Part shown: positions 43,639 to 44,676 of the stretch, in pieces
How the letters are laid out: every line of letters begins with the position of its first letter
Position numbering within the stretch: the stretch's first letter is position 1
DNA from: a virus
Taxonomy: Duplodnaviria; Heunggongvirae; Uroviricota; Caudoviricetes
Strand: one strand, 5' to 3'
DNA length: 64,000 bases
Virus record (IMG/VR): IMGVR_UViG_2648501839_000008
Made by a program: the position numbers and the translations under genes
The notes under the pieces: model-generated
The model's database searches: none
The model's input: the letters and a program-made list of their open reading frames with translations, nothing else
What the model was told of the DNA's origin: nothing

Positions 43639-44676
43639 ATGAAACATTTCAAACCAATATCTTTCTTTATGTTGTCGCTATTACTTGTTTCGGGGAGTGC
43701 ACATGCCTATGAAATACAAAAGCTGATCGATGCGGCAAAAGCAGGCGACGTTGAGTCACAGAGTGCTTTAGGTATCGACTATATGAAAGGTATTCATGGT
43801 GTCGAAAAAAACTACGATGAAGCCAGAAAATGGCTTGAACTGGCGACTTCTAAGGGGAACAAAGAAGCGTTTAATGCTCTAGGTATAATGTATGCCCTTG
43901 GGTATGGGGTTGATAAAAATTTCAAAAAGGCAGAGGAACTCTTTAAGAAAGCTGGTGATGCAGCTGGAGGCAACTCTTATCACAATCTGGGTGTTATTTA
44001 TCATAAAGGACTTGCGGGTAAGAAAGACCAAAAACTTTCCCTGAAATATCACAAACTTGCAGTAGAGGCTGGCGATCCTGAATCTGCGTCATATTTAGGA
44101 CAGTTATATTATGTTGGCGCAGGCGTGCCAAAAAGCTACAAAAAGGCAATAGAGTATTATAAAAAAGGAATCGAACTAGGCAGTGCATCTGCATTGGCGA
44201 ATCTTGGCATTATGTATGAGTATGGTGAAGGGGTTAAAAAAGATTATAAAAAAGCAGCTGAGCTTTATCAGGCAGCTTGCGATAAAGAAGATAAAAATGG
44301 CTGTGATTACATTGCAGAACTAAAAGAAAGCGGTAAATACCAACCATCAGCAGCAAGATCTAAAGCAAAATCCTCCACTCAACGACTTATTGCTAAATCC
44401 ATTGATAAAGGCGTTAACGCAACATTTACCTGGCAGGGTGATGATGCCACCTTCACCGCTAATGATGGCAAAATTGACTGCACTTTCCTAAAGGATTTTT
44501 CAGAGAAAGGAGGCAATCTGGCTACCTCGTTTGTTTGCACCGATAACGTTCAAATCATCCTGAAGCAATTCAGAGATACCAAGAATGCCTACCTCGCGGT
44601 AATGACTGACAACTTCAACACAGAAGTTAAATCATTTTCGGTCAATGTTTACGTGACTAATACTGGTTCAAACTAA
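43639..44676 (+). CDS. Secreted Sel1-like repeat protein
   Basis: Signal peptide (MKHFKPISFFMLSLLLVSGSAHA) then five or more Sel1-type repeats (ALG.MY..G.GV.K...KA...Y.KA); plus-strand gene in a minus-strand backbone. Confidence 0.75.
   Translation: MKHFKPISFFMLSLLLVSGSAHAYEIQKLIDAAKAGDVESQSALGIDYMKGIHGVEKNYDEARKWLELATSKGNKEAFNALGIMYALGYGVDKNFKKAEELFKKAGDAAGGNSYHNLGVIYHKGLAGKKDQKLSLKYHKLAVEAGDPESASYLGQLYYVGAGVPKSYKKAIEYYKKGIELGSASALANLGIMYEYGEGVKKDYKKAAELYQAACDKEDKNGCDYIAELKESGKYQPSAARSKAKSSTQRLIAKSIDKGVNATFTWQGDDATFTANDGKIDCTFLKDFSEKGGNLATSFVCTDNVQIILKQFRDTKNAYLAVMTDNFNTEVKSFSVNVYVTNTGSN

Follow-up and report, generated by a model that had tools for sequence, protein, structure and literature searches.

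A Sel1-repeat protein with a rare C-terminal beta-barrel, encoded by moron-like cargo of an SSU5-like phage-plasmid

What is the gene of a secreted Sel1-repeat protein doing among the replication genes of a virus, on the strand opposite to nearly all of its neighbours? The question is posed by IMG/VR virus record IMGVR_UViG_2648501839_000008 (Caudoviricetes), a stretch of 64,000 nucleotides that we will call the window, in which an open reading frame at 43639-44676 faces the primase gene. The region around this gene is 99.9% identical to the E. coli plasmid pRM13322. Other close relatives of the region are pECOH89-type plasmids and, outside the gene itself, the Escherichia phages Cyrano, CMS-2020a and PhiR41_1; by its sequence relationships, then, the window is an SSU5-like E. 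coli phage-plasmid. The group that includes these plasmids and phages has been described previously (PMC3999498, PMC7969092), and our literature search found no paper mentioning the gene. A first-pass annotation, made from the letters alone, had taken it for a phage moron. Comparison of related elements leads to the same view: the gene is a dispensable cargo unit, exchanged among temperate phages of Enterobacterales and equipped with its own promoter-like element. The gene and the predicted parts of its product are as follows.

43639-44676, plus strand: Sel1/barrel gene, open reading frame of 345 amino acids (aa) with an ATG start
43639-43707, plus strand: signal peptide, residues 1-23 (MKHFKPISFFMLSLLLVSGSAHA), with a predicted signal peptidase I cut after AHA and before YE
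43708-44343, plus strand: Sel1 solenoid, residues 24-235, comprising an N-cap helix, five repeats of 36-37 aa and a C-cap helix
44344-44379, plus strand: linker, residues 236-247 (PSAARSKAKSST), variable, basic and disordered
44380-44673, plus strand: eight-stranded up-and-down beta-barrel, residues 248-345, with invariant Cys281/Cys300

The Pfam model Sel1 (PF08238) recognizes five repeats in the product at an E-value of 1e-37 and 127.6 bits, against a cutoff of 30.7, and PHROGs assigns the protein to phrog_8741, a family of unknown function, at 1.2e-143. RefSeq labels the same product in pRM13322 only as a 'tetratricopeptide repeat protein'. The earlier description of the gene as encoding a signal-peptide-bearing Sel1-repeat protein thus holds in its first part and is incomplete in its second, as the repeats occupy only residues ~24-235 and the barrel at 248-345 had been overlooked. 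In a rule-based reading, the first 23 residues have the tripartite layout of a signal peptide, with lysines at positions 2 and 5, a hydrophobic core at residues 7-17 (11-residue Kyte-Doolittle mean up to 2.7), alanine at -3 and -1, and no lipobox cysteine. This layout is retained in homologues despite only 43-52% identity there. Because a Sec signal peptide is combined with conserved cysteine pairs, the product is most likely exported by the Sec route and soluble in the periplasm. One pair, Cys214/Cys222 in the C-cap, occurs in at least 90% of family sequences; both it and the barrel pair fit an oxidising compartment. Hcp proteins carry one cysteine pair per repeat, in contrast to the single pair in the repeat part here.

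The solenoid is of a familiar kind. An AlphaFold2 model places 12 helices in residues 25-230 with pLDDT above 90, and Foldseek aligns it with LceB, LpnE, c5321/EsiB and HcpC at E-values of about 1e-12 and 30-33% identity. Searches of the Protein Data Bank (PDB) with phmmer match the repeat region at 1e-30 to 1e-51, c5321/EsiB among them at 3e-46. Repeat-level NCBIfam matches to ExoR, MotX and AlgK are weak, all scoring far below the family cutoffs. The general plan, in which a signal peptide precedes an alpha/alpha solenoid of tandem 36-aa repeats, is shared with the Sel1-like repeat proteins EsiB, HcpC, LpnE and LceB and those of Oxalobacter, to which identity is 27-33% over some 205 aligned columns. 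The present gene differs from theirs in being cargo of phages or plasmids, and residues 236-345 are left uncovered by all of them. Part of that uncovered stretch is the linker, with pLDDT below 50, a pI of 11.2 and only 42% identity between alleles.

The remainder is the barrel. Modelled alone with 14 family sequences, it yields a confident eight-stranded up-and-down fold (pLDDT 85.6, pTM 0.74). With residues 236-345 as query, Pfam returns no family at E<=1; a profile search of the PDB with the barrel gives no sequence match, NCBIfam and PADLOC give nothing of note, PHROGs returns only phrog_8741 itself, and two word-indexed protein searches find nothing outside the barrel's own family. A HMMER scan of 1.84 billion cluster representatives matched nine proteins, of which about seven are genuine. 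Two candidate homologues, P0126 and P0127, were rejected as spurious, the likeness being to an 'NGTFTWSGD' motif in Big_5 Ig-like repeats. Structural matches include MliC/PliC, PhiA and ACP, which are small barrels of the periplasm that inhibit lysozymes or peptidoglycan hydrolases, and the immunity protein BtaiB, with identities of 2-18% throughout, and the best matches in a viral structure library are phage proteins of about 110 aa, one of them annotated as a putative lysozyme inhibitor. Since no Sel1 relative covers residues 236-345, the barrel is unique to a small family. From these searches, we regard it as a very rare domain without a described family, fused here to a known Sel1 scaffold.

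The distribution of the gene, which the first-pass annotation had proposed to examine across related elements, is patchy. The barrel is encoded in 91 plasmids of the PLSDB collection (Escherichia, 60; Enterobacter, 22; Citrobacter, 8; uncultured, 1), as against 931 that encode the adjacent primase (Klebsiella, 345; Escherichia, 222; Acinetobacter, 154; Enterobacter, 91; Salmonella, 49; and others). In the set of 5,426 complete E. coli genomes, the primase is found in 252 and any part of the Sel1/barrel gene in 61, always on a plasmid. The phage collection contains no record with the barrel, and all isolated phage relatives lack the gene. Only 5 of 185,579 species-representative genomes match the family, which is therefore narrow. 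The setting of the gene in the window is given by the following features.

40818-42140: DNA ligase, by profile match, on one side of the replication-module setting
42675-43457, minus strand: conserved hypothetical protein of 260 aa (phrog_4248), left flank of the cargo site
44668-45783, minus strand: DNA primase, right flank of the cargo site; the start at 45783 is that of RefSeq for pRM13322, and the open reading frame stays open to 45921
44668-44676, tail to tail: 9-nt overlap of the 3' ends of the Sel1/barrel and primase genes, from the open reading frame coordinates
45931-47271: DnaB-like helicase, by profile match, on the other side of the Sel1/barrel gene and primase

The primase matches phrog_47 at 2.4e-62, with weak matches to DNAG_N and Toprim_2, and the tail-to-tail overlap recurs in the E. 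coli and Enterobacter relatives. The placement described from the letters alone, on the opposite strand, convergent with primase and between replication genes, is thus accurate. The plus-strand minority of the window also includes a Rep3-type plasmid initiator (17547-18761) and a small helix-turn-helix regulator (35005-35391). These are maintenance or lysogeny-type functions, and the Sel1/barrel gene thus has the orientation of such genes.

Several states of the site between the 260-aa gene and primase are found. It is empty in Cyrano, where the two flanking genes are only 76 bp apart, and also in one Klebsiella and one Enterobacter relative. In Salmonella pSARB26_01, it holds an unrelated gene for a 350-aa cytoplasmic protein (L020:4618-5670, minus strand), likewise convergent with primase and without a match in Pfam or PADLOC; the site is therefore a cargo hotspot. 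In pLR-62-2_1, only the last 139 nt of the Sel1/barrel gene survive as a deletion remnant. Where the gene is present in the window, its GC content of 0.403 (0.353 at third codon positions) is below that of its flanks (0.45-0.49 and 0.45-0.51).

Homologues also occur on unrelated backbones. One IMG/VR contig (L040) encodes a 413-aa homologue between myovirus tail tube and tape-measure genes, and a prophage contig (L044) encodes one of 420 aa after tail-fibre genes; a chromosomal copy in Leclercia, beside tail-fibre-like genes, is a pseudogene. The E. whittamii chromosome has an intact seven-repeat copy near yciA/tonB (L014:6987-8297), flanked by IS3 and a primase fragment, and on an E. coli-like chromosome (L011) the copy is reduced to a barrel-only remnant of 123 aa. 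A fragment of primase beside a chromosomal copy argues that the cargo was captured together with a piece of its neighbour, evidently from a phage-plasmid. In the case of two Pantoea megaplasmids, the gene sits in a stable non-phage context, with a gene for a conserved 185-aa protein having an N-terminal transmembrane helix 54-58 bp upstream on the same strand (L006:7385-7942 and L015:6429-6986); the two genes possibly form an operon. A lipobox-like LLGC is present in the signal peptide of one of the Pantoea copies; LSVGC occurs in that from the myovirus. A Pseudenterobacter chromosomal copy lies inside a contact-dependent inhibition (CDI) orphan-toxin island, with no toxin gene adjacent.

The position in the replication module, and that of the myovirus homologue between tail tube and tape-measure genes, might be taken to mean that the product is a virion, lysis or replication accessory protein needed by the phage. 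We consider this extremely improbable. The gene is absent from every isolated phage relative and from some 90% of primase-carrying plasmids, it is read from the opposite strand behind a promoter-like block of its own, copies are present on chromosomes and megaplasmids outside phages, and an exported protein cannot act in cytoplasmic replication. The first-pass annotation, too, had seen no obvious replication role, and what it had named as contrary to a moron, conservation in all relatives with a demonstrated virion or replication function, is not what the relatives display. Its moron reading is instead well supported by the patchy presence, the empty, alternative and remnant states of the site, the lower GC, the unrelated phage backbones and a promoter-like block that travels with the gene, even though no terminator follows.

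That block is the following element.

43539-43567, plus strand: promoter-like block CTGACA-N17-TAACCT, with the -35-like part at 43539-43544 and the -10-like part at 43562-43567, about 72 nt 5' of the ATG

The sequence occurs once in the 64-kb window, where 0.01 occurrences are expected by chance. Each of 27 fetched loci has a single copy of its relaxed form, CTGACA-N17-TA(A/C/T)(C/T)(C/A)T, 60-100 nt before the start codon; these loci include E. coli and Enterobacter phage-plasmids, the Pseudenterobacter and E. whittamii chromosomal copies and a myovirus. Loci without the Sel1/barrel gene lack the block. In form it resembles a sigma-70 promoter whose -35 is good and whose -10 is weak, and the conserved part of its spacer could be a regulator site. 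A generic scan for a standard sigma-70 promoter or terminator had given none in the right place, and the block emerged only by comparing loci; it was passed over because the -10 matches at only three of six positions. A plus-strand scan downstream of the gene found no terminator-like site, and Rfam found no RNA element in the gene region. The leader around the start codon (43620-43641, GAAAATCCAAAAATG) is A-rich without a Shine-Dalgarno sequence, as is that of the common E. coli allele (ACAAAAAATATG), which suggests modest or non-canonical translation initiation.

Transcription from such a block, convergent and without a terminator, would continue antisense into primase, and one may ask if the transcription unit rather than the protein is what matters, damping the lytic replication genes in the plasmid state. 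The 9-nt overlap and the missing terminator are in line with this, as is the convergent orientation of the unrelated Salmonella cargo gene. Nevertheless, the protein is under strong purifying selection, the gene and its block occur together in contexts that have no primase, and most relatives have an empty site, so that an antisense role seems very improbable.

Selection was assessed within and between alleles. The E. coli phage-plasmid versions have five, six or seven repeats (345, 381 and 417 aa), and those of other genera measure 413-430 aa. The five-repeat allele of the window is rare, being present in 3 of the 61 E. coli genomes and in two plasmid records, and it is a mosaic.

44200, plus strand: approximate mosaic breakpoint, at codon ~188, with 52% identity to the common E. 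coli allele upstream and 98-99% downstream

Megablast homology with the common allele begins at nucleotide 562 of the gene. By the Nei-Gojobori method, the nonsynonymous rate (dN) relative to that allele is 0.36 over residues 24-187, where the synonymous rate (dS) is saturated; over residues 188-345, dS is 0.13-0.27, similar to the 0.11 of primase. The intergenic region upstream of the gene also differs between the window and the common allele. Across ten distinct 381-aa alleles, the barrel has the lowest omega (dN/dS), 0.04, followed by the repeats at 0.12-0.19, the linker at 0.48 and the signal peptide at 0.78. The protein is thus under purifying selection, strongest on the barrel, and the gene is accordingly functional. 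Diversifying selection on the repeats was considered and rejected: omega is 0.12-0.19 within the 381-aa class, and dS is saturated between classes. With the repeats under purifying selection within a class, their diversity stems from allele replacement and from gain and loss of repeats, with no detectable positive selection. The antisense and virion or replication roles are unlikely because of these selection data and the distribution.

Beside the 381-aa allele is a further gene, divergent and just upstream, for a 137-aa lipoprotein with lipobox LVGC (phrog_2320; L003:2685-3098, minus strand, in pM160133_p3). It is also present in pECOH89 and as a remnant in E. whittamii (L014, ~6780-6800), and is missing from the window and the Enterobacter relatives. 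Its distant homologues are found in temperate phages, P2-like ones included, and two of these homologues carry the annotation SPOR or peptidoglycan-binding. The lipoprotein may be a functional partner of the Sel1/barrel protein.

What, then, would an exported cargo protein of this construction do? The explanation we favour, though with somewhat less than even confidence, is that an autonomous moron unit supplies a periplasmic protein that binds or inhibits an enzyme of the envelope, most plausibly a peptidoglycan-cleaving one, and so protects the lysogen. The promoter-like element would drive the gene against the replication operon, and the Sec-exported product would settle in the periplasm as two modules on a flexible basic linker. 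It would act by binding rather than catalysis, the Sel1 solenoid, the barrel or both gripping an envelope protein, most likely a cell-wall enzyme such as a lytic transglycosylase or lysozyme, which would be blocked or sequestered. Such a target might come from an incoming phage, a competitor's toxin, an animal host or the cell itself. The lysogen would be protected, in the manner of exclusion or immunity, or its wall turnover adjusted to the element's benefit. Recognition of an invariant partner would fall to the conserved barrel, and that of a more variable partner to the variable repeat array. A role in envelope physiology or superinfection exclusion, as the first-pass annotation had suggested, is a plausible candidate.

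This explanation is favoured because, taken one at a time, both modules look like periplasmic binders or inhibitors of known types. For the repeats, the best mechanistic model is IltA (PA3978) of P. aeruginosa, a periplasmic Sel1-repeat protein that directly inhibits the lytic transglycosylase MltF (PMC10746161). The window protein is likened to it by repeat type, as a predicted periplasmic Sel1 protein that would likewise bind an envelope enzyme; IltA differs in having three repeats, no barrel, a chromosomal gene and a dedicated anti-inhibitor, LiiA. Other periplasmic Sel1 proteins that bind a partner are EnhC of Legionella, which binds Slt, and ExoR of Sinorhizobium, which binds the ExoS sensor. 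For the barrel, the model of residues 248-345 has the form of MliC/PliC, an eight-stranded antiparallel barrel of about 100 residues. Both modules have fold-level counterparts among the exported binders that neutralise envelope-targeting toxins of type VI secretion (T6SS), namely the immunity proteins PA5086-PA5088 (Tli5b, Sel1-type) and BtaiB (barrel-type). The likeness to PA5086-PA5088 is weak, with Foldseek E-values of 3e-5 to 9e-4 and TMq of 0.37-0.38, and BtaiB shares 10% identity. Immunity proteins of T6SS and CDI have the effector gene adjacent; none is found beside the window gene or its relatives' copies. CDI/T6SS immunity, prompted by the Pseudenterobacter context, was accordingly rejected, there being no adjacent toxin and no such genes in the window.

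A number of observations weigh against an inhibitor. The likeness of the barrel is at the fold level only (2-18% identity), and the eight-stranded barrel is a very widespread fold serving many functions, as avidins and lipocalin-like ligand binders illustrate. No Pfam MliC match is obtained, and the MliC/PliC signature loops, SxSGAxY and YxxxTKG, are not visible in the sequence. PADLOC defence models give no meaningful match to the gene, and no peptidoglycan hydrolase turned up among those window proteins that were scanned. The promoter-like -10 is weak (3/6), and no Shine-Dalgarno sequence is evident. The average omega of the repeats carries no sign of an arms race. Lastly, the best-scoring characterised homologue, EsiB, has a different activity.

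EsiB leads to the chief rival of this explanation, in which the protein is a host-interaction factor exposed at the surface or on outer membrane vesicles (OMVs), its solenoid binding host proteins such as immunoglobulins and giving lysogens an advantage in the gut or in infection. EsiB is among the best characterised relatives of the repeats (phmmer, 3e-46; Foldseek, 4e-12 with 31% identity to c5321) and binds secretory IgA (PMC3735183), and ImbA, a plasmid-borne protein of A. baumannii, is associated with OMVs and binds both IgA and IgG (PMC13524772). The carriers of the present gene are for the most part Escherichia, Enterobacter and Citrobacter of gut or clinical origin. Going by description, ImbA is similar in being a plasmid-borne accessory Sel1/EsiB-like protein, and dissimilar in its lack of a barrel and in its genus and plasmid type; its gene is 519 bases long (~172 aa) and, according to its authors, encodes no signal peptide (PMC13524772). 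However, the window protein has only a Sec signal, with no route across the outer membrane, and neither EsiB nor ImbA has the conserved barrel. The likeness to EsiB is generic for Sel1 repeats, as Oxalobacter, Legionella and eukaryotic SEL1L proteins score alike. No association with pathotype is apparent from the isolation sources, among them cattle, pig, chicken, soil and river. Family members are also found in Pantoea megaplasmids and Leclercia prophages, an occurrence more in keeping with a general role in the envelope than with one specific to mammals. Taken together, we judge a host-interaction factor to be unlikely.

A regulator of the host's own envelope is a closer alternative to the inhibitor that we favour. 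As an adaptor like IltA, ExoR or NlpI, the protein would tune wall hydrolases or a sensor and so alter growth, stress tolerance or lysis timing. The structural evidence is the same as for an inhibitor, with IltA as precedent (PMC10746161). The weak ExoR, MotX and AlgK matches point the same way, as does the divergent lipoprotein gene beside the common allele, with its distant homologues annotated as SPOR or peptidoglycan-binding, and the strong conservation of the barrel suggests a conserved host partner. On the other hand, the NCBIfam scores are far below cutoffs, the gene is missing from three quarters of related elements, and no partner gene is conserved across contexts. We think host tuning rather improbable, and it is hard to separate from the inhibitor reading.

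Inhibition in defence of the lysogen has parallels among classical exclusion and moron proteins, namely T4 Sp, T5 Llp, phi80 Cor and P22 SieA; T4 Sp blocks the incoming tail lysozyme. Like the Sel1/barrel gene, theirs are dispensable, have their own promoter or promoter-like element and deviant GC, lie between conserved phage genes and encode an envelope product, a location that is predicted in the case of the Sel1/barrel protein. Unlike classical morons, the Sel1/barrel gene is not followed by a terminator. To our knowledge, none of the known exclusion proteins is of the Sel1-repeat or barrel type, and our literature search found no example of a Sel1-type superinfection-exclusion protein. A bolder and doubtful proposal is that the protein belongs to a new modular class of periplasmic 'traps', traded between temperate phages and phage-plasmids of Enterobacterales, in which the invariant barrel would dock on or inhibit a conserved envelope component, and the exchangeable array of five to seven Sel1 repeats, with its deeply divergent alleles swapped through recombination, would capture variable proteins of invaders such as tail lysozymes, transglycosylases or secreted toxins. 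If true, this would be a previously unrecognised mechanism of envelope-level exclusion or immunity, built on a domain without a described family.

The rest of the window is read almost entirely from the minus strand. Profile scans identified ribonucleotide reductase (RNR), ThyA, an SbcC-like ATPase, RecA, the Rep3 initiator, Pol III alpha, an integrase, a tRNA cluster, ligase, primase and the DnaB-like helicase, along with a GpJ-like tail tip and tail-fibre genes. The tRNA cluster (38575-39228, minus strand) comprises Ser-TGA, Thr-TGT, Tyr-GTA and Asn-GTT, and the equivalent place in Cyrano has Ser, Thr and Asn. Three further accessory open reading frames have a GC content of 0.30-0.38 and are probably defence-type cargo.

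26132-27130, plus strand: low-GC DUF4365 protein, with a PADLOC Aga_REase-type match at 1.7e-10
37120-38382, plus strand: low-GC protein of 420 aa, with no Pfam or PADLOC match
48239-49942, minus strand: low-GC KAP-family P-loop NTPase, with a match to the PADLOC candidate system PDC-S49 at 2.8e-22

SSU5-like phage-plasmids are present in about 5% of complete E. coli genomes and are watched as carriers of resistance genes such as CTX-M-15 (PMC3999498). It is their accessory cargo that decides what they do for the host. The gene described here is recurrent cargo at a defined hotspot and pairs a protein-binding scaffold with a rare, constrained barrel. As a small and self-contained unit, naturally present or absent in near-isogenic elements, it is simple to test. 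Should it prove to act in exclusion or immunity at the envelope, phage-encoded defence would gain a new protein type and the variable site an explanation; if it is an immunoglobulin binder like EsiB or ImbA, it would be a colonisation factor borne by a phage-plasmid.

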